From an uncultured Methanosarcinales archaeon (GTDB lineage: Archaea; Nanobdellota; Nanobdellia; Woesearchaeales; GW2011-AR9), in assembly GCA_964344285.1 (NCBI GenBank), contig CAYFMM010000002.1:72-64071 (forward strand): DNA of 64,000 nt, given 5' to 3'. The notes beneath the pieces were generated by a model, which saw only the letters and a list, made by a program, of their open reading frames with translations, was not told the origin of the DNA and made no database searches. Made by a program: the position numbers and the translations under genes. How positions within the stretch are numbered: position 1 is the stretch's first letter; every line of letters starts with the position of its first letter. This document shows positions 18,196 to 42,380 of this stretch, one piece after another.

Positions 18196-18286
18196 CTTCT
18201 TTTTAGAGAAAAAGAAGTATACAGAGACTTATAAATGTATCGTTATAGCGACGAGGAGGTTTAGAGTTAGAAAAAGAAGATAAAAA

Positions 18287-18946: not shown

Positions 18947-18947
18947 T

Positions 18948-20054
18948 TTATTTTTTCAAAAATTTATCAACCTTAAGAGGATCCCATCCCCTAGCAACAA
19001 GTCTCGATTTAATCATCTGACCATTCATCCCTCGTTGTTTTGACTTAGTAATGTATTCCTTTAGCGGTGCATATTTTTTGTTATTTGAACGAATTAAGAT
19101 AATAGCTACTACAACAAGTGCAAGCAGTGTTACTCCACTAACTACTGCAGCAACCCACGGAAATTTTGAACTAGAATCAGTATTGCCACCTGCTAAAGGT
19201 TGTGCATCTTGACAAAGTACAAGTAAGGGATCACAAGTACCAGGACAAATTTGTAATATATCGTATCCAGACCCATCAAAGGAACATTGCTCAATTACAT
19301 CACCGTTACATCTTTTTGTATTTGGTTCACAGAACTGTTGTGCTGCTGCAACCCGAGAGGGTTGACAAGTTCTTGATTCTTCAGGTTTAGGTATTTGTGT
19401 AACGTTCATGGTTGCAGGATTACAGTTGTCAATTCTTACACAAGTTCTTGTTTGTTGCGCTCCCTGACATGTTGTCCAACCACTACATTGCCAGTTATAC
19501 CTACAAGTCGTACTTGATTCTTGTGCTGAGGTTGTATCAGAAGAACGAGAACTACCACTTCTTCTTGAACTCCCTGAGCTACTTGGACTGTCTGAATCTG
19601 AAGAATCGGAATCAGAATCCGAACCTGAAGTAGTGTCGTCAGTAGTACCAGTATCACTTGAGTCTGAAGTTGCGGGAGCAAGATAATCCAAATTAAATTG
19701 TTCTACAGTTCCAGCAGAATATGTTGCTGTGCCCACAGGTTGACGAGTTCCAAAAGTATCAAGAACAAAAAAAGTTAAAGTTGCATCTTGAGCAGTGCGA
19801 ACCTTCAAAGTAGGAGAATACCCATATTGAGCATTGGAAATTTGAGTTCTTGTTAGTTCTGTTCCAGAAGACTCCACCACTAAAATAAAAGTGCCAAGAG
19901 GAAGATTTTGAATTGAGCCATAAAATTGATGAAAATCAGTTAAGGACGGAGGGTTGTTTTGTGCCACTGCAAGAGAGGCTAATGAGAAAAGCATACAGAG
20001 AACTATAAGTAATGTTAAAAAACGCTGCAAGGTTGTTTTGCTTCCTTGGTTCAT
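18948..20054 (-). CDS. Type I membrane protein: signal peptide, ectodomain, Ser/Asp-rich linker, WxC Cys-rich repeat region, TM, conserved cytoplasmic tail (paralogous architecture to 10755..11846)
   Basis: Start taken at the internal Met 'MNQGSKTTLQRFLTLLIVLCMLFSLASLAVAQN', an ATGA 4-nt overlap with the upstream gene. The ORF track extends to 20099. Linker 'SDSSDTGTTDDTTSGSDSDSDSSDSDSPSSSGSSRRSGSSRSS'. Cys repeat 'CRYNWQCSGWTTCQGAQQTRTCVRIDNC'. Tail 'LKEYITKSKQRGMNGQMIKSRLVARGWDPLKVDKFLKK' aligns with the tail of 10755..11846. Confidence 0.6.
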   Translation of the reverse strand: MNQGSKTTLQRFLTLLIVLCMLFSLASLAVAQNNPPSLTDFHQFYGSIQNLPLGTFILVVESSGTELTRTQISNAQYGYSPTLKVRTAQDATLTFFVLDTFGTRQPVGTATYSAGTVEQFNLDYLAPATSDSSDTGTTDDTTSGSDSDSDSSDSDSPSSSGSSRRSGSSRSSDTTSAQESSTTCRYNWQCSGWTTCQGAQQTRTCVRIDNCNPATMNVTQIPKPEESRTCQPSRVAAAQQFCEPNTKRCNGDVIEQCSFDGSGYDILQICPGTCDPLLVLCQDAQPLAGGNTDSSSKFPWVAAVVSGVTLLALVVVAIILIRSNNKKYAPLKEYITKSKQRGMNGQMIKSRLVARGWDPLKVDKFLKK

Positions 20055-21631: not shown

Positions 21632-21653
21632 AGTTATTAGTAATTCTTAATTG

Positions 21654-24600
21654 TTATCTTCTTACTTCCACTTCAGTATAATAATTATTGTTTGCCCTAT
21701 CTTCGTTAATTTTTTGTACAATGATTTGAATTGCTTGCCCATCTAAAGTAATAGCCCTTGTATCTCCTTGTGCAAATAAACGATCAAGGATTACTTGTCG
21801 AGGAGTTGCAGAGACATCTGTTATTCGGAGATTGATTAAATCCGTGGGAGTTGCTGTTAATTGTAACACGTATTGATTTCCAGCAGGAGTTGTTACAAAA
21901 TCAAGTAAGCTTGCAGGGAAGGCTCCAACAGTAGAAGTATGGTTAATAGCAATACTTGAACCGTCAGTAGGAACTACGTTGTACGAACGTAGTGCGAATG
22001 TTGCATCAACCGTTCTTTCGTTGATTGGCCCACTTAAGGATTGAGTAATGTCAACAATATTTTGTCCAAGTAAAAGAGTCCCACTTGAAAGGATTGGAGA
22101 TTGCGATTGTATATTTTGAATAGAACTTAATTGTCCTGCAGGATAAGATTGCATTGCAAAGTTTTGTAATAAGCTATCTTGTGCCACTGGTTGGTATAGG
22201 GCGCCTGAGATATTAAACACAGGAACGTCGTTATTAATTACTTGCCCAGTAAAAGCAGTCCAGTTGGTTGGGCCATATGCAGGATTAGTTGAATCTATTC
22301 TTGTTACTTTTCTAATTGTTACTTGTTTATTTTCTCGCGTTAGACCATTTGATTCCAAGACATATTCTTGACCAGCTAAAGTAAGGTATTCATTCCCATC
22401 CACTACAAGTTGTTGCGCTGCTGTAGCTCCCCAACAAACATTTGCTGCAGTTAGGTCTTGGTAAATTTGTTGGTTACATAACTGGAAGCGTTGATTATTG
22501 ATTAAAACACTGTTAGTAGTTGTAAGAGTAAAAGAGTTTTGAGCAACAAAGTTAAGGCTATCTCTAATATCTTGAGAGAGGTAGTAAAATCTAATGACCC
22601 TATTTGGACCTGGAGAACTAGGAATAATAAATTCCACATCCCCTTGAGGGAGAGAGAACATTGCAACTAAGTCTCCATTTCGAGTTTCTAAAGTTGGCTG
22701 ATACACTTGTTGATGGTCTAATGAATAAATTCTTATTTGCTGCATGTCAAAAATTTGAGTTTGTGTATTTTGAGCAGCATAACCAACTGCATAATAGACA
22801 ATTGCATTGGTAATCGGAGTTGTAACTGCAAGAGCAAATTCATTACCGCTGGTTAAATTATTAACAAAGTATTCATCAAATGTACGTTGAGCATAACCAA
22901 GAATATTTGGAACATCATATCTCCTGTAAATAGATACTGTTTTAATAGGAGTATTTCCGTTAACTTGAATGTTGTCGTAATAATATAAGTACGGTCCTCG
23001 CTGAAGAGGTTGTTGATAATTTAGAGAAACTGGTGTTCCACCCACATCTAATTGGAACGTTGGCTGAAACGTTGCAAGATCATTTTGTGCAACTGCAACT
23101 ACCCCTTCGTTTTGAGGAGAAGTAATCCTCACAGGTGTTTGTGAAGACATAGAGACAAAGAGTTGTCCATTTAAATCAACTGGAGTGTCAACTACTTGTT
23201 GAGCTGTTAATGCACTAATTTGGAATGGAGGTGGAGGGACACCATAGTTTCGTTGGATAGTGATTCTTCCTCCATTTAGAGTTGAAAAGTGTGCAATATC
23301 TTCACTGCCAGTTGCAGGGATAGTAGTTTGTCCCGAAGCAGTATAATGAACTAAGTTAATGCTTTGTAAAGATAATTGTGTTTGTTGGGGATGTTCTAGT
23401 AAGTAGACATTATTTTGAAAGCGCACTGCTTTTCTTCTACCTGCAATCATTGCGTTAATAAAGTCATTGTAATTGAGATTAGATTGTGTATTTGCTAAGT
23501 CTGTAAGTGTGAAGATAGATACTTTCTTTTCATTTCCATCATGTTGATAGAGAAATGCATAATCTGTTGTTTGTCCACCTGCAGTCACTGGAAGCACTGT
23601 TAAGACATCACGACGCAGAGTTGCAAGAGTTTGTGCGCCCGCTCCTTGATCATTACATAGTAATGCTTGTTGTAAGTCTGCAGAATTGTCTTGACGGCAG
23701 ATAGTGAGTACACCTAGTGGGTTTGATGCAGGAGTTGTGATGTCAACGGGAGCATTAAGAGCTACTTGAATTTCGTGATCTTGTTCCAAGTTAAAAGGAG
23801 TTACAAAGTTTGCAGGTGCTTCTCCAACATTTCCTGCACGGACCATTACCTGTCCTTGGTTAATTGTGACTATAATTGTCCTACTATTTTCCACATCAAA
23901 GACATAACTATTTGTTCCGGCGTATTGTTGAGCAGCATACGTGGTTAACCTTGGAATGTGGCGAAGTTGGAGCTGATCTAGTGAGAATAAAGTTTGTCCT
24001 GAAGCATGAGTTAATTCATAATATTGATTTTCTAAGACGAATAAAAGAGACTGTCCTTGAATCAAATTTTGTGAAAATATGCCTAAAGGGAATTGAATAC
24101 CTTGTCCCCCTACAGAGATAGAGTTTGTTAGAATTGCATCTACTTGTTTTTGTGATCCTTGAGTCGGTTGTTGATAAAGAAAAGTTATTTGCTGATTCGT
24201 AGTCGGGTTTCTATTTGCATTACGGAGCACAGAAAGTGATTCTATTGGATTTTGTGGAGAACCTTGCAAGCAGACAGTTGCCCTATCTGCTACAGATTGT
24301 GTCCCTTGGTCACAAAGGTAAAGGCCGGGGTGTATCGAAGATCCTCCGGCAGTAGCCGCACCAATATAAGTATTAATGTTGTAACATCCATCATCTTGTA
24401 AAGTGAGAGAGTATGATGCATCAAAGTGAAATCTTTCGTCAAAAATAGTTGTAGGATTTACATTAGGATTACAGATTTGCCATTGTCCGCTACTACAATA
24501 AGCTTTCTCACCACCAGTAGTTGTTCTGATTAATCCTTGAATTTCAGGTGTATTATCGCATTGTTCCCAATCTCCAGAGGGAGTACAAAATAAATTACCC

Positions 24601-24977
24601 ATAACGCCAGTCCCTGCTCCTTCTGAAAAACAATTTAGCCCTCCAAACTTCATGGCACAACTTGCTTGACTTGGGCAACATAATTCTAAAGGAACAAAAG
24701 AAGATGGCACTTCAAAATTACCTGTAGAAGGGTTGTATTGATTAATTCTGCTTGAGATCAATTGGCTTCCTGAAGAACATGATTGACCAGTAAGTACAGT
24801 ACCAACTCCTAAAAAAGCTTGTCCTGCTAAGGCTTGATTAAAGTCTTGATCTTGTTGTGAGTCTATAGCACTTGGAGAATAGTAAAAAGAAGCAACAATA
24901 CCTAAAATCACAACAAAAATGAGAGACGTAACTAGAACGGTCTTTCTATTTGCCTCTTTTCCACTCTTTAATGCCAC
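21654..24977 (-). CDS. 1107-aa signal-anchored surface protein with Cys-rich N-terminal module and long beta-rich Gln/Asn/Thr-rich ectodomain
   Basis: N-terminus 'MALKSGKEANRKTVLVTSLIFVVILGIVASFYY'. Cys cluster in the first ~230 aa. No enzymatic motif recognised. Confidence 0.55.
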   Translation of the reverse strand: MALKSGKEANRKTVLVTSLIFVVILGIVASFYYSPSAIDSQQDQDFNQALAGQAFLGVGTVLTGQSCSSGSQLISSRINQYNPSTGNFEVPSSFVPLELCCPSQASCAMKFGGLNCFSEGAGTGVMGNLFCTPSGDWEQCDNTPEIQGLIRTTTGGEKAYCSSGQWQICNPNVNPTTIFDERFHFDASYSLTLQDDGCYNINTYIGAATAGGSSIHPGLYLCDQGTQSVADRATVCLQGSPQNPIESLSVLRNANRNPTTNQQITFLYQQPTQGSQKQVDAILTNSISVGGQGIQFPLGIFSQNLIQGQSLLFVLENQYYELTHASGQTLFSLDQLQLRHIPRLTTYAAQQYAGTNSYVFDVENSRTIIVTINQGQVMVRAGNVGEAPANFVTPFNLEQDHEIQVALNAPVDITTPASNPLGVLTICRQDNSADLQQALLCNDQGAGAQTLATLRRDVLTVLPVTAGGQTTDYAFLYQHDGNEKKVSIFTLTDLANTQSNLNYNDFINAMIAGRRKAVRFQNNVYLLEHPQQTQLSLQSINLVHYTASGQTTIPATGSEDIAHFSTLNGGRITIQRNYGVPPPPFQISALTAQQVVDTPVDLNGQLFVSMSSQTPVRITSPQNEGVVAVAQNDLATFQPTFQLDVGGTPVSLNYQQPLQRGPYLYYYDNIQVNGNTPIKTVSIYRRYDVPNILGYAQRTFDEYFVNNLTSGNEFALAVTTPITNAIVYYAVGYAAQNTQTQIFDMQQIRIYSLDHQQVYQPTLETRNGDLVAMFSLPQGDVEFIIPSSPGPNRVIRFYYLSQDIRDSLNFVAQNSFTLTTTNSVLINNQRFQLCNQQIYQDLTAANVCWGATAAQQLVVDGNEYLTLAGQEYVLESNGLTRENKQVTIRKVTRIDSTNPAYGPTNWTAFTGQVINNDVPVFNISGALYQPVAQDSLLQNFAMQSYPAGQLSSIQNIQSQSPILSSGTLLLGQNIVDITQSLSGPINERTVDATFALRSYNVVPTDGSSIAINHTSTVGAFPASLLDFVTTPAGNQYVLQLTATPTDLINLRITDVSATPRQVILDRLFAQGDTRAITLDGQAIQIIVQKINEDRANNNYYTEVEVRR

Positions 24978-25120
24978 ACTCTATCAGTAGAAAATGAAAT
25001 TTTTTGTGTATATAAAGGTTGCTATAAAGGACAGTTAAGATACGTAAGCACAAGACACTTGATTGAACACTAGGAAAGAAAGAAAAGAAAAAAAAAGGAT
25101 AGAAGAAAAGGATTAAAAAG

Positions 25121-25133
25121 AGCGCCACGGGCC
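25121..25133. repeat. 13-bp direct repeat 'agcgccacgggcc' identical to the 3' end region of tRNA-Ser at 47342..47354 (candidate distal att site)
   Basis: Exact 13-nt GC-rich match in an AT-rich genome, same orientation as the tRNA copy. No cloverleaf can be folded around this copy. Confidence 0.4.
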
Positions 25134-25585
25134 CGCAGGGGACAATCTTGACCAAGACAGTGAGATTTAAAGCTAAAGTGCGCATTCTTTCGAGGTCTGA
25201 TTAGAAGATAGCCGTACCCATTTTATTTCACAAGTACCAAAGCTTACATTTAAAAAGAACAAAATAATCCAAAGAACATGTTAGTTTTTGGCACAGATGT
25301 TCCCCTCATCGAGATTATATTCTCATTAGCTATTTTGACTTTTCTTATCCTTGCAGAAGTAATTATCATCTTGGCATTAATGATAAAGAGGATGAATGAG
25401 TGACCAAGGAACAAGATATTGCTCAGAGATTCCAAATAGAGAACATTTGTATAACTGCGTAGTTTCAAACACAGATAACTCAGACATTTTTATTACAACT
25501 CCAAATGAGCAAACAAGAACCATGACAAACACTTCAAGTAAGAGTGAATCCGTAATTGAGTGTGTTAAAGTTAATTAGTTTTTTT

Positions 25586-28500
25586 CTATTCTCCAAATGG
25601 ACTCTTAAACGTCCAGTCTTGAATTGCTTGGTTGCCTGCTTCATCATGTATTATTAGTGCAACATCATGATAACCACCAAAAAGAGGAGATGGAGTATAA
25701 CTAATACCTGAGGGAGTAATTGTTGCAGATGAGGTAACTATATTTCCATCAAGTTTTAACATAACATTACCTACATCTATTCCAGATAACAGGTCACTAA
25801 ATTGAGCTTCAATCAAAGGTTGAGTTGTGGTTACTTGACCAGCAGGGCCATAATTTGAAATGGTGGGAGGTGTTAAATCTACAAATAATTGTATACTTGC
25901 AATATTACCTTCATTTAAAGCATTATCAACTGCACGAACTTCTATAAGATGAGTTCCTTGACCTAAGTTTATTCCGATAGAGGTCAAAAGTGTCTGTTGC
26001 CAAGAACCACCATTTGTTCTGTATTCATAATACTTAATTCCACTTAGATCACTGATTGGACTCCAAGAAACTGTATGTTGTTGTATATTTATCCAATTAG
26101 TATAGGCAGTGGTTAAAGATGGAGTCCCAGGAGCAGTAGTATCCACTTTCAAATCTTGAGAAGCAATCTGACCTATATTTCCAGCAGCATCAATAGCTCG
26201 AACTTCGACAGGATGTACTCCATCTGACAACGAAGAAGTTGAAAACGATTTTCCTATAACGCTTTGCCAAGGATTTGAATCAACACGATATTCGTAGTAA
26301 TTGATAGAGTCAGCTAAAACATTCCAAATGACATCAAATTGTGTTTGTTGAGTCCACTCCGGATAAAGTGTTCCAAATGTCACAGCATTAGGAGGAGTTG
26401 TATCAATAGTTACATCCAAATTTCCAATTGCACCAGTATTCCCAGAATTATCAATTGCCCTTACACCGATATTTGTAATCCCATCTGGCAAATTAAATTG
26501 TGGATAAAATTCAGTTTGTGTTCCTACAATTACCCAAGGATTACCATCAACAGAGTATTCATATTCTGCAATACCAGATACATCATTCAATGCTTGCCAA
26601 TAAATACGGGGTTGGTCATTATTAGTAGGGCTATTGGGATCTGATTGAACCATCGGTGCAGCTGGACCTTGGAGATCAACATAAAGACTAATATTTGATG
26701 CAGGCCCAACGTTTCCAGCATTGTCAATTGCACGAACTTCCATTGTGTGAATCCCATGTGCTAATGTTTGTGTGGTTGCTTCCCTAATAGTAATTGCTTG
26801 CCAAGCTGCACCATCAACACGATATTCATAACTTGAAATGCCACTTGCATCTACTGGATCAGACCAAGTTACAGTATGTACTTGAACTGGAGTCCAAGTT
26901 GTGTGTGCTGTGTTTAGAGTTGGAGATGGAGGTGGTGTCTGATCTACTTGTGCCGTGACAAAACCAATCCCTCCTTGATTACCCGCAGTGTCCACTGCAT
27001 AAACACTGACGATATGTGTACCCTCAGGAACAGTTATTGTTGCACTTTGATTTAGACTAGCATTTATTGGGGCACTCGAACCGACTTGATATTCATAATG
27101 AGAAATTCCTGAAGCATCAGTTACTGCACTCCAAGTAAGAGCATGACTATTTTGATTTGTCCAGGTATTTGGATTAATTACAACATCTGGTGCAGCAGGA
27201 GCTGTTGTATCAATGTAGATACTTGCTTGCGCAATTGCACCCACATTACCTGCATTGTCAATTGCACGCACACTGATGTTGTGAACTCCACTCGTTAGTG
27301 TTGGAGTAGTAAGTGTTGTTGTAGATCCTACTGAAGTCCAAGTGCCAGCATCAATTGCGTACTCGTAATAATTAACCCCACTTAAATCATTAATAGAGTC
27401 CCAAGACACTTGCACCGTTGATTGAGTTGTCCAAGTTGGTGGACTTACTGTTAGCGTTGGTGCAACTGGTGCTTTGGAGTCTACCTTAAAATGATACGTT
27501 GAGGCAGAACTAAAAAGACCTACTTCGTCTACTGCAACTACATGAACATTCCATTGTCCATCAGGGAATACTGCTTGGCTTTGGTTTGTAAAAGCGCCCA
27601 CCGAAGAGAGATTAAATGAACCTGCATTGGAGAAACGATTCATTCTTCCTGGAACTGTATTTGTAAAAGTATCTGTAACATAATGATACCCAGCAATACC
27701 AGAGTGATTATCTGTTGCATTAGCACTAATTTCTACAATATTATTAGAGTACCACATTTGGTCGTCTGGGTGTGAGTTTGATGTAATCGTAGGAGTTGAT
27801 GGATTCTCTTTATCTATTTTTACGGTAACTACATTTGAAAAAGTCTGGTGGTTTAAAAAGTCAATTGCAATCACAGATAAATCATAAATGCCGGAAGGGT
27901 GAGTTGGATGAAAATAATTTTCCTCAATTGGAGTTGACACCGAATTTCCCGAGAGGAAATAGGTTTGAATACCACTACCCGCATCACCAGGATGATCCCA
28001 AGTGTAATAAGGAGAATCATGTGTTGTCCATTCAGATCCAGAATGCCATTCTTGTAAAAAGATTGGATTTGGAGGCAGTGTATCAATAAAAAGGTTAGTT
28101 GTGCCAACCTCACCAAGGTTTCCAAAATTATCTACTGCACGCACGGCAATTAAATGTGTTCCATCAGTTTGAGAAGGGGTTGTCACACTTGTAGCAGTTC
28201 CAACAGATGTCCAAACACCACCGTCAATTGAATATTCATAATGTGAGATTCCGCTTAAGTCTGTAACAGTTGTCCAAGATACCTGGTGGGTTGTCTGGGT
28301 AGTCCAATTAAATGGCGCTGCATTAACTGTAGGTGCCACTGGACCTTCAAGGTCTAAGACTGTTACTTCTTTTGTTACTTCGTTGTTGCCCTCGTCTGAC
28401 TCTGTTATTAAGTCAGGGAAATCAGCAGTAACAGTCATCTGTTGATCACCGTATGTTGTTGCGTTCCAAACAAAAGTTAAAGTTTGAGAGCTCTGTTGAG

Positions 28501-31500
28501 CAATATCTACAGTTTGTTCGCTAAACCCATTTCCGTAGTTCAATCTAATGATTGTTCCACTTGCATCAGTAAAACCATTATTATGAACAGTTACTTGTGT
28601 TTGGAGTTGGTTTAAGTTTTGACCTAAGTTGATAACATCAAATGCATCTAAAGATAAGTCTGCTAAATTAGATTGAACTATTAGTTGTTTAGTTCTTTGT
28701 GTCTGCAATCCAGAGCTATCTGTTGCAGTTACTGTAATATGATATACTCCTGATTGGGGTGCAACTAAAGTTCCTTCGTAAAGACCATTGTTTAAGACTA
28801 AGGATTGATCTTGAGAAGACAAGCCTGCATTTACTTGGGCAACTTCAACGTTGTCAGTTGTATTAACCCCGATTTGAAATGATGTCCCTGCAACAACCCT
28901 ATTTGGTGCAATGATTTGATGAATCACAGGTCTTGTTCCATCTTGAACTGTAATTGGGATTGTAAGTTGATTATTTGTTTCATCAGATTCTAAAACACTG
29001 TTAGCTGAATCAATTTCAATTGTCACATTATGAGCTCCTGCTGTTGCAGCCCACGTAAAAGGAATTGTGCTCACTTGACTTGTTAAAGACACTGTTTGTG
29101 ACTGAGTCTGATTACCATCAACAAAAAGAGTTGCCTGAGTTGTGTACGAAGAGCCCCCGTTCTTTTCTACAAAGACAGTGATTGTATTAACCACATTATC
29201 AGTCACAGGAAGTGGTTGGAAGTTCATCGCTGAAACAATTAAATCTGGTGTTTGAGAAAATACTTCAGCCAAGATCTGACGAGAAGAACGAAGTCCATTT
29301 ACATCTTCTACGATTATATCAATTGAATATTGACCTGCTTGAAGTAAAACTGTTCCTTCATATAAGTTAGTAGTTGGGTTTAATTGAAGGTTAACATTAT
29401 TTCCAGCAACTTGAGCAGTTACCGCTACAACACCCACATTGTCAACTGCGTCTACACTAATAAAAGTTGGGTTTCCTTCAATAACATTTGTTGCAGTCGC
29501 TTGATTAATTGTTGGAGGGGTTTGATCTAATGCCCATAGGGTTGTTGTTAGAATGTTATTTGCTTCATTTGACTCTGGTATTTGATTAGTTGGGTCTATT
29601 GAGATTGTGACATTATTCTGCCCAACATTAGGAGTAAAGGCAAATTGAATCAATTGATTAGATTGGCCCGCCACAGTAGTTGTCTGATTAGAGATAACAG
29701 CATTATTTACAAATAAACTGACCATCACATTTTGTGCGTTAGCTAAACCATAGTTAAACACAGTAACATTTAATGTTGAGGATGCTCCTTCGTAAAGAGT
29801 ATTCACTTGAATATTTTGTGCGTTAAGATCCGCTTCAGGACTAACGAAATTAAAAGTGAAATTTCTCGTGCTTGTTAAACCATTGATATTTGTAGCAGTT
29901 AGCCTGCCACTATACCTCCCAGGATTAGAACTAAACCAACCACTCCCTAAATAGATGTCGTTTGTCGAAGATGGAGAGAATATTGAGCCTAAGCTGTAAG
30001 GTTTTGCATATATAACCAATTCCACATTCCCTAAAAGAGGCGTCTCATCTGAGATATTTGCAGTTAGAGGAAATGATGAACCTACCATAATTGGATCGGG
30101 GTAATCTAAACTATTAATTATAGGCGCAGTCAAGTCGTCATACTGATACTGGATGTTTAAGTTTGAAATATTAAGAACACCGCTTGAAGCTGAAGACAAA
30201 ACAATTGGTACTTGACAAGTTGTCTGGCTTGGAGGACAGAGTACGTCGTCATTAAGGTAATTTTGTAAGTCTTGTGAAAAATCTGTTGTTGTTGCAACAC
30301 CTTGAAATTCTCCAGTATGATTCCAATTAACACTTAAATCATTTGCAGCATCAAGTGATGGGTCTCTTGGAAAGTTACTGTAAGTTACTTGTATATTTGA
30401 AAAGTCTAATCTTCCAAGGGTGTCTGAATGGAAGGTTACTGGAACTAAGCAGAGGTGTTGTTGAAGTTGACATCCAACACAATCACAAGCACCATTATTT
30501 AGCGCTTGATTAATCTCTTGTGCAAAGTCTGGCACGGTTTGAGTAATATTAAAAGTATTTTGATAACTCCATTCATAAGAGCCATCAGCAGTTCCAACCT
30601 CTATAAATGGATTTGAAGGGTATGAAGAGTTCGCAAAATTTGCAACACCAGGTAGTCCATAATATCCATTATTTCCTGAATTCTGCCAAGCGTTATTTTG
30701 TTGGAACCACCGTTGACCCCCAATACCAGCAAGACCTGATTGAAGTAATCTAGTTGAGCTATCTACAAGATACAAAGAGGAGATATAAAGGTTACCTGAG
30801 TTGCCACCGCCACCACCATGACCCCCTTGACCACCTTCTCCAAAAGGCCCATTATGTGTAATCCTCTTTCCGCCATTACCTCCATTACCACCAGCGCTGC
30901 CAGAAAGGTCTATATTACCAGACAATAAAACGTTTTTTGCATAGAATCCAAGATTCCCGCCAGGGCTCCCTGCAACACCGCCTGCACCTCCGCCACCGCC
31001 AGCATCTAAGCACCAAGTACACTGCCATGAGCCTCCATGACTTAGCTGAACTGAACCATCTTGTCCATCAGCTCCATATGAATTTCCACCTGCACCACTT
31101 CGAACGTTAACTGAACAACCATAACCCCCTAATTCTGCAAGAGCTGAACCTGCCCCGCCTGCGCTAAAGCCATTTGCAGAAGAACCATCTTGTCTACGAA
31201 GACCATTCCCCCCTGAGAGATCAACGCTAGCTCCTGCTTGGCCAAAAGGAGTTCCGCCACCCACATTATTCCCTCCGTTATTAGGCCTATAATCACAATT
31301 AGTGCCCCCTCCTCTACCACTTGCTCCATACCCTGAAGTCTCACCACTCCCACTTCGTCCAACACCATTGGCACCAGATACTAGGACACCTGAAAGGTCA
31401 ACATCACCAGAAATAGTTACGCCATTTTGTGCACGAATAATCATTGTGTTTCCAGTGGTATCTTGTGTTGAAAGTGTTTTCCCAGTGCCAAGGTTGATAT

Positions 31501-33034
31501 TTGTAAATTGATACTCCTGATCCATGTTAAGATAAATTGTGTTTCCATTAACAGTATAATCTTGACCTTGAATCAGATTACCTAAAGAGGTTGCTGAGTT
31601 AGTAAAAATTAATTCTCCATCGCTACCATCCCCCATATTTATTGGAACGTCCATAGTACCAGTAATATCAAAGGTTGCAGAGCTTACATTTGCAAAACGG
31701 TTAACAACAATGCGATAAACTGGATCTGCTGTAGGGCCAATATGAATTGAACCAAAAGGTAAGAACTGGTTAAATACAATCACTACAGAGCCAGGTCCGA
31801 TTTTTACTTCTGTTTGTTCAGATTCTATTTCTAAGACAAAACTCCCAGAGTCTTGTATTGTAGGGTTAAATGAACCAACCATCTGTGCCTGTCCCTGTAA
31901 AACTTCAAAAGGCATGCCTTGATTTTTCACTTGTAATAAATCTTGTTTTAATTGTGTCCAATCTTTTGTAAAATAGTGATTTGCAAAATCTTCTGCTTGG
32001 TATAAATTCAAATAAGTTCTTGGAGGAAACTGCTCAATTTCTACTTCTGGCGCACATGTAACTTCCCCATTGTTATCTTCACAAGAAGGTGCAGGCATAT
32101 TTGTAACTTTTGGATATAATTCAGCTTCATCTACTTTATAGGTTTCTTTATCGACACCTAACTTTGTTAAACAGATATCAAAGTTATCTTCAGGATTACA
32201 TCTTTGAAAGACTTCTTTTACAAACTCGTCTTTCCATTGCCATTGCACACGATAAAAGTTTCCTTGAATATACTCTAAAGAATATTCTAAGTAATTAGAG
32301 ATGTAATCCTGTCTAGAGATCTCCCATGCGTGTGCAGTTGAATCTAATGAATCTAGTGAAGCTTGTAATTGATTAGCATCAAATTGACATTGGGATGTTG
32401 TTGGGCTTGGAGGGTTATTATGGGAAGGATCATTTGTTCTTGCATAACAATCATTTGAATCAACATAGAAGTGAGAAATTGTGTTGTCGTGGCGACAATC
32501 AGTTTGTAACTCAACCCAATTAGGAGTACAACCTGTATCTAATGAGGGAAGAGTAAACACATTAAAGTTCTCCACAGTAATTAAGTGTGAAAGTTCTTCG
32601 TCAGGATAAATGACTTCAATTTCAGGAATATTTTGAGTAGAGGTTTCTTCTAAAGTTAAAGTTCCAATTTGAGAAGAGGAAGCAAATTCTTCGTCTCCTT
32701 CAAATAACAAAGACATTTCATGGGTACCAAACTCGGTCCATTGGAAAAGAGCTTTTCCATCAACATCTGTTATCTGTGAGTCTTGTAGATTGTCATCGAT
32801 GTATAAATCAACTTGTTTTGCCTCTAGCGGCATGTTTTCAACATCAGTTAGTTGTGTTTCTATTTCTATAATATCAGATTGGGGGGTTGTGACAGATGTG
32901 AGAACTGTTTTCACAAGAGGGTTTTCAACCTGACTTAAAGCAATTGAAGAGATAATTACTAAGAGTAATACAAGTACGGAACCGAACAGTAATTTATTCC
33001 TCATTTGAAAGACCCTCCACTTGTGCAATGGCAC
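25586..33034 (-). CDS. Giant (about 2470-2482 aa) secreted adhesin-like protein: signal peptide, N-terminal Cys-containing region, Gly/Asn-rich segment, 3 CARDB-like + 3 Ig-like alternating repeats, then ~9-10 FN3-like repeats
   Basis: Probable true start at the internal Met 'MRNKLLFGSVLVLLLVIISSIALSQV' (~33004). CARDB hallmark endings 'ESNEANN', 'ESDETNN', 'ESDEGNN'. FN3-like unit 'PxAPTxxxxPxxWTxQxxHxVxWxxVxDxSGIxxYEYxxDGGxW...RAxDNxGNxG' repeated from ~28360 down to ~25850. Gly-rich segment 'GGNGGNGGKRITHNGPFGEGGQGGHGGGGGNSGN' lies at ~30700-31400. Its 5' end overlaps the 3' end of the subtilase gene. Confidence 0.7.
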   Translation of the reverse strand: MPLHKWRVFQMRNKLLFGSVLVLLLVIISSIALSQVENPLVKTVLTSVTTPQSDIIEIETQLTDVENMPLEAKQVDLYIDDNLQDSQITDVDGKALFQWTEFGTHEMSLLFEGDEEFASSSQIGTLTLEETSTQNIPEIEVIYPDEELSHLITVENFNVFTLPSLDTGCTPNWVELQTDCRHDNTISHFYVDSNDCYARTNDPSHNNPPSPTTSQCQFDANQLQASLDSLDSTAHAWEISRQDYISNYLEYSLEYIQGNFYRVQWQWKDEFVKEVFQRCNPEDNFDICLTKLGVDKETYKVDEAELYPKVTNMPAPSCEDNNGEVTCAPEVEIEQFPPRTYLNLYQAEDFANHYFTKDWTQLKQDLLQVKNQGMPFEVLQGQAQMVGSFNPTIQDSGSFVLEIESEQTEVKIGPGSVVIVFNQFLPFGSIHIGPTADPVYRIVVNRFANVSSATFDITGTMDVPINMGDGSDGELIFTNSATSLGNLIQGQDYTVNGNTIYLNMDQEYQFTNINLGTGKTLSTQDTTGNTMIIRAQNGVTISGDVDLSGVLVSGANGVGRSGSGETSGYGASGRGGGTNCDYRPNNGGNNVGGGTPFGQAGASVDLSGGNGLRRQDGSSANGFSAGGAGSALAELGGYGCSVNVRSGAGGNSYGADGQDGSVQLSHGGSWQCTWCLDAGGGGGAGGVAGSPGGNLGFYAKNVLLSGNIDLSGSAGGNGGNGGKRITHNGPFGEGGQGGHGGGGGNSGNLYISSLYLVDSSTRLLQSGLAGIGGQRWFQQNNAWQNSGNNGYYGLPGVANFANSSYPSNPFIEVGTADGSYEWSYQNTFNITQTVPDFAQEINQALNNGACDCVGCQLQQHLCLVPVTFHSDTLGRLDFSNIQVTYSNFPRDPSLDAANDLSVNWNHTGEFQGVATTTDFSQDLQNYLNDDVLCPPSQTTCQVPIVLSSASSGVLNISNLNIQYQYDDLTAPIINSLDYPDPIMVGSSFPLTANISDETPLLGNVELVIYAKPYSLGSIFSPSSTNDIYLGSGWFSSNPGRYSGRLTATNINGLTSTRNFTFNFVSPEADLNAQNIQVNTLYEGASSTLNVTVFNYGLANAQNVMVSLFVNNAVISNQTTTVAGQSNQLIQFAFTPNVGQNNVTISIDPTNQIPESNEANNILTTTLWALDQTPPTINQATATNVIEGNPTFISVDAVDNVGVVAVTAQVAGNNVNLQLNPTTNLYEGTVLLQAGQYSIDIIVEDVNGLRSSRQILAEVFSQTPDLIVSAMNFQPLPVTDNVVNTITVFVEKNGGSSYTTQATLFVDGNQTQSQTVSLTSQVSTIPFTWAATAGAHNVTIEIDSANSVLESDETNNQLTIPITVQDGTRPVIHQIIAPNRVVAGTSFQIGVNTTDNVEVAQVNAGLSSQDQSLVLNNGLYEGTLVAPQSGVYHITVTATDSSGLQTQRTKQLIVQSNLADLSLDAFDVINLGQNLNQLQTQVTVHNNGFTDASGTIIRLNYGNGFSEQTVDIAQQSSQTLTFVWNATTYGDQQMTVTADFPDLITESDEGNNEVTKEVTVLDLEGPVAPTVNAAPFNWTTQTTHQVSWTTVTDLSGISHYEYSIDGGVWTSVGTATSVTTPSQTDGTHLIAVRAVDNFGNLGEVGTTNLFIDTLPPNPIFLQEWHSGSEWTTHDSPYYTWDHPGDAGSGIQTYFLSGNSVSTPIEENYFHPTHPSGIYDLSVIAIDFLNHQTFSNVVTVKIDKENPSTPTITSNSHPDDQMWYSNNIVEISANATDNHSGIAGYHYVTDTFTNTVPGRMNRFSNAGSFNLSSVGAFTNQSQAVFPDGQWNVHVVAVDEVGLFSSASTYHFKVDSKAPVAPTLTVSPPTWTTQSTVQVSWDSINDLSGVNYYEYAIDAGTWTSVGSTTTLTTPTLTSGVHNISVRAIDNAGNVGAIAQASIYIDTTAPAAPDVVINPNTWTNQNSHALTWSAVTDASGISHYEYQVGSSAPINASLNQSATITVPEGTHIVSVYAVDTAGNQGGIGFVTAQVDQTPPPSPTLNTAHTTWTPVQVHTVTWSDPVDASGISSYEYRVDGAAWQAITIREATTQTLAHGIHTMEVRAIDNAGNVGPASNISLYVDLQGPAAPMVQSDPNSPTNNDQPRIYWQALNDVSGIAEYEYSVDGNPWVIVGTQTEFYPQFNLPDGITNIGVRAIDNSGNTGAIGNLDVTIDTTPPNAVTFGTLYPEWTQQTQFDVIWNVLADSINYYEYRVDSNPWQSVIGKSFSTSSLSDGVHPVEVRAIDAAGNIGQIASQDLKVDTTAPGTPSLTTAYTNWINIQQHTVSWSPISDLSGIKYYEYRTNGGSWQQTLLTSIGINLGQGTHLIEVRAVDNALNEGNIASIQLFVDLTPPTISNYGPAGQVTTTQPLIEAQFSDLLSGIDVGNVMLKLDGNIVTSSATITPSGISYTPSPLFGGYHDVALIIHDEAGNQAIQDWTFKSPFGE

Positions 33035-36000
33035 TAGTTATTGTTGCTGATTTTGGAAGTGTAACATAAACGATTTGTTGCCCTCCCTGTTGAAAGGTCA
33101 CATTTTGACTATTTCTGCCATCTGAGAATGTTGATAAGGTATTTGATTGAGCGGAGGTAACGATTACTTGAACTGAATCTTGAGACTGCACACCATGACT
33201 GTCAGTAACTGTTGCAGTGATCACATGAGCACCTAATGCTAGGTTTGCAACCGCTAAAGGTGCTGTCGCAATAAGATTATTCCCATCTCTCCATTCAACC
33301 GTATTAATAGTGCCATCTTCTAAATCAGTAGCAGTAGCACTAAGAGTTATTGTTGATCCTTCTAAAAAGTACTCGTTGGAAAGAGGACTTTGGATGCTAA
33401 CTTGAGGTGGCATTGATGTAATTGTAATTTGCGAAGTTGCAACGTGAGTTAATCCATCGTTATCAGTTGCTTGAGCTGTAATCTGATGTGTACCTATTTG
33501 TAAGCTTGATGTTGCTAGTTGTTCTCCCGAACCAAGATATCCATCTAAGGAAGAAGTCCAAGTAACATTAGTTACATTTCCGTCTAAGTCTATTACTAAG
33601 GAGCGTAGAAGCAATGGATTTGAATTAACCGCATTTGAATTATGCATCGGCGATAATATAGATACTGTAGGAGGAAGAGGTGCATGTTGTTGTACTAAAA
33701 CCGTATGTGAATTAGAGAGACCATTAGAATCTGTAACTGATGCAGTAAGTAAATGATATCCCACAGAAAGTGTTCTTGAAAGAACATTTCCCGTGCCAAG
33801 AGAACCATCTAAGGAAGAAGTCCATTGAAGACTTGAGTTCAGATTTCCTTCATGAGGATCATAAGCAGAACCAATTAAAGTAAGAAGGCGATTAAAGAAA
33901 CTTTGTGAGTTGTTAGTAGGAGTTATTATTTGAACTATAGGAGTTGATTCTTCAATTTCAATAGTTACGGATTGCATTGCAGTTGTTGAGGAAGAGTCCA
34001 CTACAAAGTAAGTCAAAGTATGATTACCTACACTTAAGTTTTGTATGTTTACAAGGTTTGAATTTGCAATAGGACCATCTAAAGAAGAGTTCCAACTCCC
34101 TGGGAGACTACCATCTTCAGGATCATTTGCAGTTGCGTCCAAGTAGATGATTTCACCTTCTTCAAACATCTGACTTGTTAGAGGAGAGTTAAGAGTGATT
34201 ACAGGAGGTTGTGAAGGAACAATAGAGATTGTTACTTGATGCGTATTTGTATTACCGTCTGAGTCTTGCACAGTTAAGGTAATGCGATGTTCTCCCAAAG
34301 AGAGGGTTGATGCATTAATTACATTGCCATTTCCAAGATTACCATCACGATCAGAAACCCACCTGAATAAAGATTCATTTAAAGTTCCGTCTTTAACATC
34401 ATACCCATCTCCAATTAATTCTAAGCTGGAATTAACTGCTGCTTGGTGGCCATTTTGAGGAGAGTAAATTTGAGCTTGTGGTAAAGGATCGACCACTTGA
34501 ATCTGTTCACTCCTTTCATTATTAAACTCATTGAATTCAACCACAGCATTTTGTGAATCTAGTTCAACAGTAATTTTATGTACCCCCATAAACGCCGAGG
34601 TAAATGTTGTATTTAATTGATAATGTTGACTTGGAGCAATTGCGGGAAGCAAAACTGTGCTAAAAGTGCTAAGACCCAAAGAGGAGTTGTCTGTAAAGCG
34701 CACAGTTGTAGGAGTTGATGCAACACTCCCTTCATTTGAAACTAGTACACTAACAGTTGTTGGAGCATTTGCATCAGGTGTGAGTGATGAAAATGCAAGT
34801 GCAATAGGAACTAAATCAGGTTGATTTGGATTTCTTGCAGTGCTAAAGTAAACATTATTATCTCGCACAAAAGATTCAATATTAGTGTCATCCATTACTT
34901 GTTGAGTGTGGTTAGAAATATTCCCTGTAATGTTTGGAGCTAGTGCACCAAATTCAATGCCCCCATACCAGTCAATTGCATGATTGTTTCCTAAAAAATC
35001 AGGCACATTTTGTTGAGTGTAAAGATATTGCCATGCCTGTTGATTCCAATATGTTTCATCAAAAGGAATTTCCACACTGCTAATATTATTTGAATCAATA
35101 ATATTTCCAAATGGAAGAGTAGCCCTATTTTGTTGTTTGTACCATTGTGCTATTGCAAGAGATTTTGCTGCTCTGCGTAGTTCTTCATACTCAGGTGCGG
35201 AATTGATTTTTTGTACAGTTTGTGCTGTAACTTGATTTAGATGACCATTAATATGACGTTGTTGCCACTGTAGTAATCTTGCATCTAAATCATCTTGAAT
35301 CTGTTGATTAAAGTTATACAGAGAAAGATCTAAATAAATTGCATCCCACACATAATCAATATTTAACGTAACATTTTCTACAAATACATTACAACCTCTG
35401 CTTGTTGCATCAAGTTGCTCTGGATAGATCCACGTTCTTCTAAAACCCTGGGGAAAGGCATTAAATCCTTGTGCTTGAATCTGATTCCAGTAAGGACTTG
35501 CTTGTACTGTTGCAATCCAATCAAGCATCATTGTTCTTTCATAGTTTCCCGATGGAGAGCCAAATTGATCCCTTTTTAGTTGAACATCTGCAGCTAGAAG
35601 AGTTTGGCCTAATTTAGTTCTTTTTAGTTCATTGTGAACCCTACTTGTATCTCCCACTCTACCCAAAGGACCATTTCCAGGTTGGTGATCCATTGTAATC
35701 CAGAGATCATTGTTTGGGATTGCAAGTCCTGCAAGAAAATAGTCAACTGCATTTCTAGTTGCCTGTGATGCATTAATTGCAGGAAGACCCTCTTGTCCTT
35801 CCATTACAAACTGGACGTTGTTAGGATCACAAGTTGAGATATAATTTAAGTTGAGTGAGGTGAAGTCGATACCGGCAGGGTAAAGAGAGTCTACTTTTTT
35901 TGCTGAGACCGTGAATGGGACTGGCTTTCGGTTCCAACGATGGCCTTTTACCTTAATGATCCATTCTCCTGAAACTGCAGGGTTGATAGTTATCTTTTTA

Positions 36001-37571
36001 TTAAGAGAAGAATCATATGAGAAATATTCAGTCCCATTAGGGGCAACTAAAGAAAGATTAACTTTCTCCATTGATTGTTGATTTAATGAAACTTCAAAAG
36101 CAGGGGCAGTACTAGGAACTGTTAAATTAGTTCTCCAGATTTGTTTCCTGTGTACTTCACCCGAAGCAATTTCTCTGAATTGAATTGTGTTTAGGTAATT
36201 TATTGCTGCCCAAACGTCGATACGAGAAACTGTTATGTTCGTCTCTCCATCGTAGATGGGAACCCCAGATTTATTCAAAAGAAAGTATAATTCCATAGGA
36301 GTAGGATCTACACCAAATTGTTCCATGGAATATTGTTTAATTAGGCCCGCTGCTCCAGAAACGTGAGGAGTTGCCATGGAAGTACCTCCTTCACTTCTGT
36401 GAAGATTATTCTTATTCCATAGAGATTTTATACCAGATGCCCCTTGGATTCCGCCCCCTGGTGCTACCAGATCCAGTCTTGCCCCTCTCTCCCTAGATGG
36501 ACCTCGGTTGGTGTAATCTGTAAGTGCATAACTAGCATCATATTTTGCCACCGAGCCGACCGAAAATGATCTAGGGCCACAAGCAGGAGCATTAATACCA
36601 TCCCTAAGAAAATCATTACCCGAAGCCACATAAGAAGGAATTCCCAGATGGTAAGCAGTATTGATTGCACTAATTGCATTATAATCAGGATCATAACATC
36701 CATCCCGCCATGTTTCTTTTTCAGTCCCAATACTCATTGAAATGATAGATATATTTAACCTATCTTTATTCCTAATACACCATTCAACACCTTCCTCAGC
36801 AATAACGTCATCACCATTCCCTTCCTCATCAAGAACTTTTATAGCAACAATGTTGATTCCTTTAGCAACACCTGTTGCAATAGGGGAAGTAGATGCAATA
36901 ATCCCTGCTACATGAGTCCCATGACTTTCGTCATCATAAGGATCATTATCTCCATTAATGATATCTGTACCACCGACAACAACACTACAATTAGCTCTGT
37001 TGATGTCATTAGTCCTTGAGCAATTCCCCATATAACTATGGGTATAATCTACTCCCGTATCTAAAACACATACAGATTGAAATCTTATGTTATTTACAAG
37101 AGGTTGGGCCAAGTGGGCGTTTATCGAAGCCACACTCCCTCCCACTGAAGGATTAGACCAATCCTGGGGAGCCCCTAATGAAGCATGCATTTTTCTTGGA
37201 AGGGTTATCAACTGGACGGACTCAAGAGAGTCTAATTTCTCTAAACCTTTTTTTGAAACCGAACCATATATAACTGGCCTTAAATCCAATTCTCCTTGTG
37301 GCACATAATCCTCTTCTCCAAGAAGATTAAGAACTTCATCTTTTTTTGCCCGATTATAATTTGCAATTAAGGGATATGCTTCTTCCATATTCCCAGGCAC
37401 ATAATTTTTTTCTAAAGAGATTTCGGGAGGCAAAGTGTCTTCAATAAAAATTGTCACTTTCACCCATTCTTGACTCTCAAGCACAGAGTAGACCTCATTA
37501 CCGATTACACTTTCTGCTAAAGTACTAGAAAGAAATAATATAAGGAGGAAAACTAAGAGTTTAACTCTCAT
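32994..37571 (-). CDS. 1525-aa secreted subtilisin-like serine protease (peptidase S8) with large central unknown domain and C-terminal array of ~5 Ig-like repeats bearing a 'DPEDG' motif
   Basis: Catalytic triad contexts 'VCVLDTGVDYTHS' (Asp, ~37060), 'HGTHVAGIIAST' (His) and 'GGTSMATPHVSGAAGL' (Ser, ~36370). C-terminal repeats 'A.A.DPEDG.L...W.S.LDG.LG.G..L....L..G.H.IT..VTDS.G' cover ~33000-34570. Confidence 0.8.
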   Translation of the reverse strand: MRVKLLVFLLILFLSSTLAESVIGNEVYSVLESQEWVKVTIFIEDTLPPEISLEKNYVPGNMEEAYPLIANYNRAKKDEVLNLLGEEDYVPQGELDLRPVIYGSVSKKGLEKLDSLESVQLITLPRKMHASLGAPQDWSNPSVGGSVASINAHLAQPLVNNIRFQSVCVLDTGVDYTHSYMGNCSRTNDINRANCSVVVGGTDIINGDNDPYDDESHGTHVAGIIASTSPIATGVAKGINIVAIKVLDEEGNGDDVIAEEGVEWCIRNKDRLNISIISMSIGTEKETWRDGCYDPDYNAISAINTAYHLGIPSYVASGNDFLRDGINAPACGPRSFSVGSVAKYDASYALTDYTNRGPSRERGARLDLVAPGGGIQGASGIKSLWNKNNLHRSEGGTSMATPHVSGAAGLIKQYSMEQFGVDPTPMELYFLLNKSGVPIYDGETNITVSRIDVWAAINYLNTIQFREIASGEVHRKQIWRTNLTVPSTAPAFEVSLNQQSMEKVNLSLVAPNGTEYFSYDSSLNKKITINPAVSGEWIIKVKGHRWNRKPVPFTVSAKKVDSLYPAGIDFTSLNLNYISTCDPNNVQFVMEGQEGLPAINASQATRNAVDYFLAGLAIPNNDLWITMDHQPGNGPLGRVGDTSRVHNELKRTKLGQTLLAADVQLKRDQFGSPSGNYERTMMLDWIATVQASPYWNQIQAQGFNAFPQGFRRTWIYPEQLDATSRGCNVFVENVTLNIDYVWDAIYLDLSLYNFNQQIQDDLDARLLQWQQRHINGHLNQVTAQTVQKINSAPEYEELRRAAKSLAIAQWYKQQNRATLPFGNIIDSNNISSVEIPFDETYWNQQAWQYLYTQQNVPDFLGNNHAIDWYGGIEFGALAPNITGNISNHTQQVMDDTNIESFVRDNNVYFSTARNPNQPDLVPIALAFSSLTPDANAPTTVSVLVSNEGSVASTPTTVRFTDNSSLGLSTFSTVLLPAIAPSQHYQLNTTFTSAFMGVHKITVELDSQNAVVEFNEFNNERSEQIQVVDPLPQAQIYSPQNGHQAAVNSSLELIGDGYDVKDGTLNESLFRWVSDRDGNLGNGNVINASTLSLGEHRITLTVQDSDGNTNTHQVTISIVPSQPPVITLNSPLTSQMFEEGEIIYLDATANDPEDGSLPGSWNSSLDGPIANSNLVNIQNLSVGNHTLTYFVVDSSSTTAMQSVTIEIEESTPIVQIITPTNNSQSFFNRLLTLIGSAYDPHEGNLNSSLQWTSSLDGSLGTGNVLSRTLSVGYHLLTASVTDSNGLSNSHTVLVQQHAPLPPTVSILSPMHNSNAVNSNPLLLRSLVIDLDGNVTNVTWTSSLDGYLGSGEQLATSSLQIGTHQITAQATDNDGLTHVATSQITITSMPPQVSIQSPLSNEYFLEGSTITLSATATDLEDGTINTVEWRDGNNLIATAPLAVANLALGAHVITATVTDSHGVQSQDSVQVIVTSAQSNTLSTFSDGRNSQNVTFQQGGQQIVYVTLPKSATITSAIAQVEGLSNEE

Positions 37572-42327: not shown

Positions 42328-42380
42328 AGTCTTTTATAGCAACTTTAATAAACGCTCTTTTCTTACTCTTATTTAGTATA

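Follow-up and report, generated by a model that had tools for sequence, protein, structure and literature searches.

A giant, multidomain surface protein from a DPANN archaeon with a putative hydrolase partner and a glycine-rich module also found in viral tail-tip proteins

The 64,000-nucleotide stretch of contig CAYFMM010000002.1 analysed here (the window; source samples ERR2281800 and ERR2281801, ENA PRJEB17505) encodes a secreted protein of 2472 amino acids (aa), referred to below as the giant. Its gene is the last of three that overlap head to tail on the minus strand, the first two encoding a 294-aa protein and a 1525-aa subtilase. We propose, with a probability of roughly 60%, that the giant is the reach-and-bind arm of a cell-surface device encoded by this three-gene cassette, in which the subtilase is its hydrolase partner. 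The C-terminal ~1500 aa, comprising three pairs of a cadherin/immunoglobulin (Ig)-like and a CARDB domain followed by ten OmpL47-type sandwiches, would form a long rod, whereas the N-terminal third would carry specialised modules, above all a glycine-rich “G module”. The giant would contact another cell or polymer surface on which the hydrolase would then act. Strands of an orphan element at the end of the hydrolase, termed “pre”, would complete the second of two cysteine-containing domains of the giant (Cys2), so that a domain split across two polypeptides holds the pair together, and the small lipoprotein-like protein is a candidate membrane tether. Very large modular surface proteins are a familiar kind in DPANN archaea. 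What is new is a well-modelled but uncurated family of G modules, shared with proteins of viral tail tips, and a hydrolase partner whose head can be swapped and which carries an orphan half-domain complementary to that of the giant. Residues of the giant are numbered throughout from a GTG codon at position 33034.

The coupling of a protease with the giant had been suggested by an earlier sequence-only reading of the window, made by a model from the letters and their open reading frames (ORFs). A functional link is supported by the order of the genes, hydrolase then giant, which is conserved in five independent loci. The window partner scores 137.2 bits against the Peptidase_S8 model (cutoff 21.8) and contains the motifs VLDTGVD, HGTHVAG and GTSMATPHVSG. 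At locus L018, overlapping genes encode proteins of 235, 1268 and 2555 aa, and L019 repeats this arrangement. Over subtilase residues 504-1520 the 1268-aa protein shares 34% identity (E 2e-174), but its head is Peptidase_C92 (a papain-like amidase) instead of S8. The giants of L018 and the window align over their Cys2, Ig/CARDB and repeat regions. A search with the hydrolase body led to L022 (Woesearchaeota GCA_016177615.1) and L023, where an S8 partner is followed by giants of 2145 and 1740 aa, respectively. L026 has the same gene order together with a homologue of the 294-aa window protein (48% identity over 56 aa, E 3.5e-14); this small first-gene protein (838-1356) also has a weak Fervidolysin_NPro-like match. 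What is conserved across these loci is the body and the partnership, whereas the catalytic head can be exchanged. The partner hydrolases are themselves stalked extracellular proteins of 1200-1600 aa. In five other related giants we found no hydrolase domain fused in cis, only propeller, LamG and beta-helix domains.

The first gene of the window cassette overlaps the subtilase gene by 4 nucleotides (nt). The sequence of its 294-aa product (MKNNFKILVAVFALLFLVGC) fits the lipobox pattern [LVI][ASTVI][GAS]C, as does that of the small L023 protein (LIVGC). In view of the Fervidolysin_NPro-like match in L026, the first-gene product may accompany the protease in the manner of a propeptide or inhibitor, in place of or in addition to serving as an anchor.

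The proposed physical link between the two large proteins rests on the “pre + Cys” cassette, which was defined in the present analysis and is not a curated family. To collect relatives, aa 120-1000 of the giant were compared with 1.84 billion representative proteins by exhaustive HMMER search, giving 404 matches at E ≤ 1e-3, of which the 150 listed were analysed as P0001 onward (P0001, the top match, is the window protein itself). A Cys1-type domain occurs in 115 of the 150 listed relatives. Within single proteins, the “pre” element (consensus FNNS...ENLTF.G..N.TRYL.lPK.ANVTSA.LNLtG) invariably precedes a Cys domain, and 150-460 aa are inserted between the two. With p for “pre” and C for Cys, the element orders among the 150 are pC (63), pCC (11), pCpCC (7), ppCC (6), pCpC (3) and pppCCC (1), a bracket-like arrangement as expected from nested insertion into a split domain. 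Where there is a surplus element, as in pCC and pCpCC, it is a Cys domain ending a CC pair. The window giant follows this layout with “pre” (417-462), G module, Cys1 and Cys2.

Giants adjacent to a hydrolase gene have a pre:Cys ratio of 1:2 (window, L018, L022) or 0:1 (L023). As in the window subtilase, an orphan “pre” occupies the final ~45 residues of the L018, L019, L022, L023 and L026 partners (E 2e-13 to 8e-16), and every partner hydrolase ends 1-6 residues past it. When the orphan “pre” of the partner is added, the pre:Cys ratio is balanced in every pair. The Pacearchaeota protein P0002 (pCpC, locus L002), which is balanced by itself, has no hydrolase gene in the 3 kb upstream. From the complementary orphan elements, the element counts and the gene order we propose that the C-terminal “pre” of the hydrolase would complete the Cys2 half-domain of the giant in trans. 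In donor-strand complementation, an incomplete beta-sandwich of one polypeptide is likewise completed by strands from another, and the idea proposed for Cys2 is the same as in chaperone-usher pili and archaeal threads. In contrast to these systems, the proposed donor is ~43 aa long, comprises several strands and terminates an enzyme, and it would link a pair of unlike proteins instead of polymerising a single one.

The G module lies within the segment between “pre” and Cys1. It is present in at least 45 of the 150 listed proteins, usually followed by a Cys domain, and in other carriers LamG, beta-helix and FG-GAP/PQQ propeller domains accompany it; the best non-self matches are ~40% identical. 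The giant as a whole is the sole member of its 90%-identity cluster. A scan of the genome collection with aa 36-1000 found no close relatives, and neither aa 120-1000 nor the G-module head retrieved a homologue in word-index searches. Scanning species-representative genomes with a pattern of the module head identified two loci, one in a Candidatus Pacearchaeota metagenome-assembled genome (MAG; P0002, 2217 aa) and one in a MAG labelled Saccharibacteria. The latter (L003, CAZQHF010000008.1) encodes a 508-aa CARDB-like plus G-module protein, and its neighbours are archaeal-looking, Cys-rich surface proteins with a C-terminal transmembrane (TM) segment and a Lys/Arg tail. Either this contig is mis-binned or the module is truly shared with Candidate Phyla Radiation (CPR) bacteria.

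The best clue to the role of the G module comes from tailed viruses. In their genomes, the genes after the tape measure specify the part of the virion that touches the host. Fourteen viral contigs in IMG/VR encode relatives of the G-module head. In the ~55-kb, siphovirus-like contigs L006-L008 and L010, the full module forms the N-terminus of a ~854-aa protein (profile hidden Markov model (HMM) match, E 1e-62 to 1e-69), while 300 aa of it are present in L009. In L007, where the neighbours were scanned, the gene order is tape measure, Dit, phrog_644 and then the G-module gene. The unrelated, low-GC contig L004 encodes the module in a 396-aa protein, again downstream of the tape measure. The viral G-module proteins are annotated as phrog_13336, “unknown”, and GenBank phages gave no tblastn match to the G module, in its window or viral form, or to the viral Dit. 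Because the viral module is placed in the tail-tip gene block, we suggest by analogy that the G module contacts a cell surface. The tail-tip proteins (L004, L006-L010) share true homology with the giant over the ~335-aa module (HMM E 1e-62 to 1e-83); they differ in being 400-860 aa long with the module at the N-terminus, whereas in the giant it is inserted into a split domain of a 2472-aa cellular protein. That glycine-rich polyglycine II (PGII) domains can serve as receptor-binding tips is known from gp38 of phage S16 (PMC12227593). We found no sequence or fold match between the G module and gp38, an adhesin of S16 and other T-even phages.

Secretion of a modular protein without an anchor, as the sequence-only reading had described it, agrees with the hydropathy scan: the sole hydrophobic segment lies at aa 10-33 and is that of the signal peptide, and no 19-aa window beyond aa 8-41 has a mean hydropathy above 1.6. 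Neither an archaeal C-terminal sorting signal (PGF-CTERM/archaeosortase type) nor a TM anchor was found, the terminus being ...QDWTFKSPFGE. All 18 cysteines are located within aa 169-940. In the rod, the predicted three CARDB-like domains with E(S/T)(N/D)E(A/T/G)NN ends were recovered at aa 1068-1163, 1262-1358 and 1459-1564. Pfam CARDB (PF07705) scores 93.3 bits (cutoff 22.7) with three full-length stretches, and the end motifs are ESNEANN at aa 1154, ESDETNN at aa 1349 and ESDEGNN at aa 1545. Their alternation with Ig-like domains also stands, since each is preceded by a ~90-aa spacer whose profile matches, over its full length, the cadherin-like module of SraP (4m03, E 1.1e-4) and, more weakly, cadherin and PKD-type domains.

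The claim of about nine to ten FN3-like repeats at the C-terminus was right in number, with nine clear units and one degenerate, but not in family. In an HMM built from one unit and self-iterated, nine units tile aa 1565-2390 (E 1e-25 to 1e-39); units 2 and 3 are divergent and the degenerate tenth spans aa 2391-2482. The region matches NCBIfam NF047446 (OmpL47-type beta-barrel domain) with 183.2 bits against a cutoff of 40 (E 7.8e-55, seven stretches), and Pfam Big_13 (PF19077) with 79.6 bits, scored on the whole protein, against 27, each stretch covering only profile positions ~52-102 of 102. Pfam fn3 (PF00041) gave no match at E ≤ 1 with the repeat region scanned in three pieces. Sequence searches of the PDB with either end of the giant (N-terminal 965 aa, C-terminal 918 aa) returned nothing. 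The ten-unit profile reaches the BIg domains of SiiE (2yn3, E 2.5e-8, C-terminal third of the unit); along almost all of its length it also matches fibronectin type III (FnIII) modules (E 1e-4 to 1e-5), among them that of Bacillus chitinase A1 (1k85, E 1.7e-4). On these profile matches, “FN3-like” is acceptable as a description of the fold and wrong as a family assignment. The repeats are old, since the units are 22-54% identical to unit 1, and Tandem Repeats Finder detected no DNA-level tandem repeats within the gene.

The overall composition of the giant would also suit a structural envelope or S-layer-associated protein, for which the subtilase would be nothing but a maturation or turnover protease, with neither host contact nor a domain completed in trans. 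The mature protein is very large (~262 kDa), acidic (isoelectric point 4.2) and rich in Thr, Ser and Asn, with 23 N-glycosylation sequons. Its gene lies within a ~29-kb same-strand run (9263-38452) that encodes mostly secreted or membrane proteins, and DPANN archaea are known for strain-specific PKD/CARDB surface-layer proteins that take up much coding capacity (PMC5498576). We nevertheless regard this explanation as unlikely, albeit to be taken seriously. A maturation protease would not be expected to swap its head for C92 while retaining the same 1000-aa body and the orphan element, and the partner is itself a stalked extracellular protein of 1200-1600 aa; the giant lacks an anchor and a lattice-type signature, and its G module is shared with viral tail-tip proteins.

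Alternatively, the giant might belong to a cellulosome-like extracellular complex that binds and degrades polymers for nutrients and has no part in cell-cell contact. We consider this improbable, since neither a glycoside hydrolase nor a carbohydrate-binding module (CBM) was found at curated threshold anywhere in the cassette, and the catalytic heads, an S8 protease or a papain-like amidase, are no carbohydrate-active enzymes. The match of the repeat profile to FnIII modules of chitinases and CBM-containing enzymes speaks for such a complex, yet FnIII-like modules are generic spacers. Further hints in its favour are a weak CBM_X2 match at the start of the G module, neighbouring genes for LamG/NosD beta-helix and SBBP propeller proteins, two neighbouring paralogues with a cohesin-looking N-terminus and a duplicated C-terminal motif, and the LamG, beta-helix and FG-GAP/PQQ propeller domains of other G-module proteins.

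Several observations weigh against the proposal of a reach-and-bind arm with a strand-linked hydrolase. CARDB, Ig-like and OmpL47-type domains are generic extracellular scaffolds, and function was read from domain content: adhesion and host attack are the function that this content suggests, and the label “adhesin” given to the giant by the sequence-only reading has the same basis. The giant's own “pre” is divergent and is matched only weakly by the family HMM (E 7.6e-4). When “pre” copies are typed as outer or inner, those of the hydrolases lean towards “inner” by 13-16 bits and those of the giants are ambiguous, so that no clear complementary pairing emerges. Some of the relatives with a surplus Cys domain may be truncated metagenomic proteins. 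No homology is detectable between the small upstream proteins of the window and L018, and the lipobox of the small protein is a pattern match only. For the G module, Foldseek found no PDB neighbour of the model, TM-scores of this model against the viral matches are low (0.2-0.3), and the similarity to Obg described below is marginal; artificial glycine linkers appear in the same list, so composition contributes.

The 300-aa Gly/Asn-rich segment of the sequence-only reading is indeed 23-31% glycine across aa 501-800. It is not of low complexity, however, and instead forms most of a conserved, ~335-aa folded module. Its head is rich in beta structure (GDGSDGELIFT...YQFTNINLG...); behind the head, conserved (GGX)n runs alternate with strands. 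Across 26 copies, 34-44% identical to that of the window, 15 columns are invariant, 14 of them Gly, and more than 20 further Gly columns are nearly so; the conserved non-Gly motifs include GDGSDG.L.FT, Y.FT.F.LG and AGGGGGAGG.AGK.G. An AlphaFold2 (AF2) model based on the 26-copy alignment has a mean predicted local distance difference test score (pLDDT) of 87.5 and a predicted TM-score of 0.74. The conserved Gly runs reach pLDDT 93-97, are assigned by DSSP neither to helix nor to strand, and alternate with short strands. Conservation and model alike indicate that the stretch is a confidently folded domain family and not a linker. Composition and the lack of a matching Pfam model could be cited for a disordered linker in an otherwise generic repeat protein, but we deem this very improbable given the position-specific conservation of Gly and non-Gly residues, the high pLDDT within the Gly runs and the occurrence of the module as a discrete unit in unrelated architectures, viral proteins included. 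As to curated families, the module (aa 466-800) has no relevant Pfam match at E ≤ 1, only the sub-cutoff CBM_X2 match at its start; nine homologues have no Pfam match to the module at E ≤ 0.1, and scans of the whole giant and of P0004 gave no NCBIfam match for it.

The fold may be of PGII type. Natural bundles of polyglycine/polyproline II (PPII) helices number about half a dozen, including Obg, snow-flea antifreeze proteins, acetophenone carboxylase, S16 gp38 and ALK (PMC12227593). Such bundles, that of the ALK/LTK glycine-rich domain among them, are built from left-handed Gly helices with three residues per turn, joined by hydrogen bonds between their backbones. Searched against the PDB, the profile of the G module (whole, and its C-terminal half separately) matches five Obg N-terminal domains at E 0.0025-0.17, the other matches being Gly-rich tags or linkers in engineered or fusion constructs plus one or two much weaker extras. 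The alignment with the Obg N-terminal domain (1lnz, six PPII/PGII helices) covers ~65 residues with GG.GG..........GG.GG.GG.GG.V motifs in common. Obg differs in being cytoplasmic, with a domain of ~160 aa, whereas the G module is extracellular, twice as long and equipped with its own beta-rich head. Taken together, the (GGX)n periodicity, the ordered runs that DSSP leaves structureless and the Obg matches make a PGII-type architecture plausible on marginal evidence. The wider proposal of a host-breaching device, formed by a two-gene machine joined through a split domain and equipped with a G module from a new, large family of PGII-type binding domains exchanged among DPANN archaea, possibly CPR bacteria and viral tail tips, is tentative and, in our view, rather doubtful.

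Of the remaining N-terminal third, only aa ~45-130 have PDB neighbours (invasin, CARDB and MG domains) in an AF2 model of the N-terminal 425 aa, whose overall confidence is low (pLDDT 63.9). The four-Cys mini-domain (C.P.W...C...D.N.CY..TG..SD.NPP..N.Y.C) is single in the giant and occurs elsewhere in up to 12 tandem copies (12 in P0014; also in P0092), and the domain at aa 223-416 is shared with P0003, P0009, P0016 and P0026. Neither of these two domains of the giant has a Pfam match.

The ORF itself (25586-33034) is uninterrupted, as had been claimed, with 2482 codons counted from the GTG and a stop codon at 25586-25588. The ATG at 33004, 11 codons into this ORF, is the likelier start, because the signal peptide begins there (MRNKLLFGSVLVLLLVIISSIALS/QVENP), an SD-like GGAGG lies 8 nt upstream and the public gene call uses it (2472 aa). 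The overlap of 11-41 nt with the subtilase gene stated in the earlier reading was recovered with one value per start codon, 11 nt for the ATG and 41 nt for the GTG. Metagenome assemblies of very long repetitive ORFs do tend to collapse or chimerism, but the possibility that the giant is a frameshifted or decaying pseudogene or an assembly artefact with mis-assembled repeats or a fused frame is extremely remote, as the identical 2472-aa product was assembled from two separate sequencing runs (contigs of 43.5 kb and 192 kb), DNA-level repeats were not found and the shared domains are collinear with those of the homologues in L018, L022 and L023. Coordinates of all features are listed in Table 1.

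Table 1. Positions of the cassette genes and of the domains of the giant in the window (residues of the giant counted from the GTG at 33034)
Feature	Position	Strand	Remarks
Giant surface-protein gene	25586..33004	(-)	2472 aa from ATG at 33004
Signal peptide, aa 11-34	32933..33004	(-)	hydropathy and sequence; cleavage inferred
Ig-like beta-sandwich, aa ~45-130	32645..32902	(-)	weak Pfam Big_3_5 match, E 3e-4
Four-Cys mini-domain, ~55 aa, aa 165-222	32369..32542	(-)	C.P.W...C...D.N.CY...NPP...C
Alpha/beta domain, aa 223-416	31787..32368	(-)	motif YRVxWxW.DxFV; no Pfam match
“pre” element, ~43-aa strand segment, aa 417-462	31649..31786	(-)	divergent copy; precedes inserted module
G module, aa 466-800	30635..31639	(-)	HMM of 26 copies (window copy included), E 1e-95
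Cys1 domain, aa 801-896	30347..30634	(-)	NPFIEVG..GSYEW...C.C.GC...C.VPV.FHSD..G.L.FSN..V.Y
Cys2 domain, aa 897-985	30080..30346	(-)	second Cys-type copy, without own “pre” in the giant
Three tandem (cadherin/Ig-like spacer + CARDB) pairs, aa 986-1564	28343..30079	(-)	Pfam, profiles
Ten tandem ~90-aa OmpL47-type/Big_13 beta-sandwich repeats, aa 1565-2482	25589..28342	(-)	HMM
Partner subtilase gene, 1525 aa, secreted	32994..37571	(-)	S8 head aa 166-414, body, CARDB, PKD/Big_7 repeats
Orphan “pre” at subtilase C-terminus, aa 1479-1521 of 1525	33009..33137	(-)	“pre” HMM, E 1e-12
First cassette gene, 294 aa	37568..38452	(-)	signal peptide, lipobox-like LVGC, weak SdrD_B-like match

The gene content of the window indicates that the host is a DPANN-type archaeon related to Woese- and Pacearchaeota. 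The window encodes Ribosomal_S6e (archaeal/eukaryotic; 4989-5429) as well as FtsZ, SepF, SufBC, an IscS-NifU fusion and a FlaI-like ATPase. A 123-nt tRNA at 47344-47466 (-), found by Rfam (RF00005, 42 bits) and missed by ARAGORN in bacterial mode, probably represents an archaeal tRNA with an intron. Annotations place relatives of the partner gene in Candidatus Woesearchaeota and a G-module relative in Pacearchaeota. The archaeal assignment follows from the ribosomal protein, the ATPase, the unusual tRNA and these relatives.

Around the cassette, the giant gene is followed by a gap of 608 nt (24978-25585) with a GC-rich patch, in which a publicly called ORF for a hydrophobic peptide of 60 aa lies at 25396-25578 (+) and a second short ORF may follow. 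Beyond the gap, a ~16-kb same-strand run (9263-24977 (-)) encodes mostly secreted or membrane-anchored proteins without family match, starting with a 1107-aa protein directly downstream of the giant gene. The run includes a NosD beta-helix plus LamG protein (15904-18195) and two paralogous secreted proteins (18287-18946 (-) and 15088-15900 (-)) with a cohesin-looking N-terminal sandwich and no Pfam match; both end in a duplicated F.(F/Y)ID.WY ... VIDNWY..GC* motif that might be a docking module. On the other side of the cassette, 41041-45929 (+) encodes another pair of surface proteins, two adjacent SBBP beta-propeller repeat proteins (428 and 1182 aa), the longer of which has a TM segment at its C-terminus. 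Three tandem, ~189-aa polytopic membrane paralogues adjoin the 772-aa FlaI-like (archaellum/type IV pilus) ATPase (49795-51518 (+), 52767-55085 (+)), and the SufB/SufC cluster includes a gene for a 568-aa fusion of cysteine desulfurase (Aminotran_5) with a NifU-like N-terminal domain (59259-60965 (-)).

Known systems resemble the giant in part. SPEARE proteins of Nanohaloarchaeota are giant DPANN surface proteins for which an action on the host cell has been proposed. They unite a serine protease with adhesion domains in one polypeptide, whereas the window has two genes and interchangeable heads. SiiE of Salmonella and SraP of Staphylococcus (2yn3, 4m03) are also beta-sandwich rods with a binding region at one end, but they resemble the giant weakly and in single domains only. 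Export and anchoring differ as well, with a type I secretion system for SiiE and LPXTG for SraP, and no hydrolase partner is known for either. With Leptospira OmpL47 (NF047446/NF047441), only the repeat unit is common: the whole-protein OmpL47 equivalog scores 114 bits on the giant against a threshold of 250, and OmpL47 is bacterial and outer-membrane-associated, whereas the giant is archaeal and uses ten units as a stalk. Among DPANN archaea, large strain-specific CARDB/PKD surface proteins have been described and host contact has been proposed for them (PMC5498576). The “ARMAN” Mia14 proteins (PKD or beta-propeller plus CARDB) come from the same host group and are likewise secreted and very large, but the G module, the pre/Cys split-domain cassette and the hydrolase partner of the giant do not appear in their descriptions (PMC5498576).

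Giant modular surface proteins are the main candidates for the attachment of DPANN archaea to their hosts. Should all the inferred parts of our proposal fail, the giant would be an ordinary hypothetical surface protein. DPANN genomes can be surveyed for the three-gene cassette and its interchangeable hydrolase heads, the orphan half-domain in each partner constitutes a testable link between enzyme and stalk, and the G module may extend the short list of known polyglycine-II folds by one family. The sequence-only reading had noted that an anchorless giant would need a partner for its retention; a Cys2 domain completed in trans, together with a small lipoprotein tether, would, if true, supply one. 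If the proposal holds, ultrasmall episymbionts would possess a modular, head-swappable device, with an S8 protease or a C92 amidase, for attaching to and breaching the host surface.

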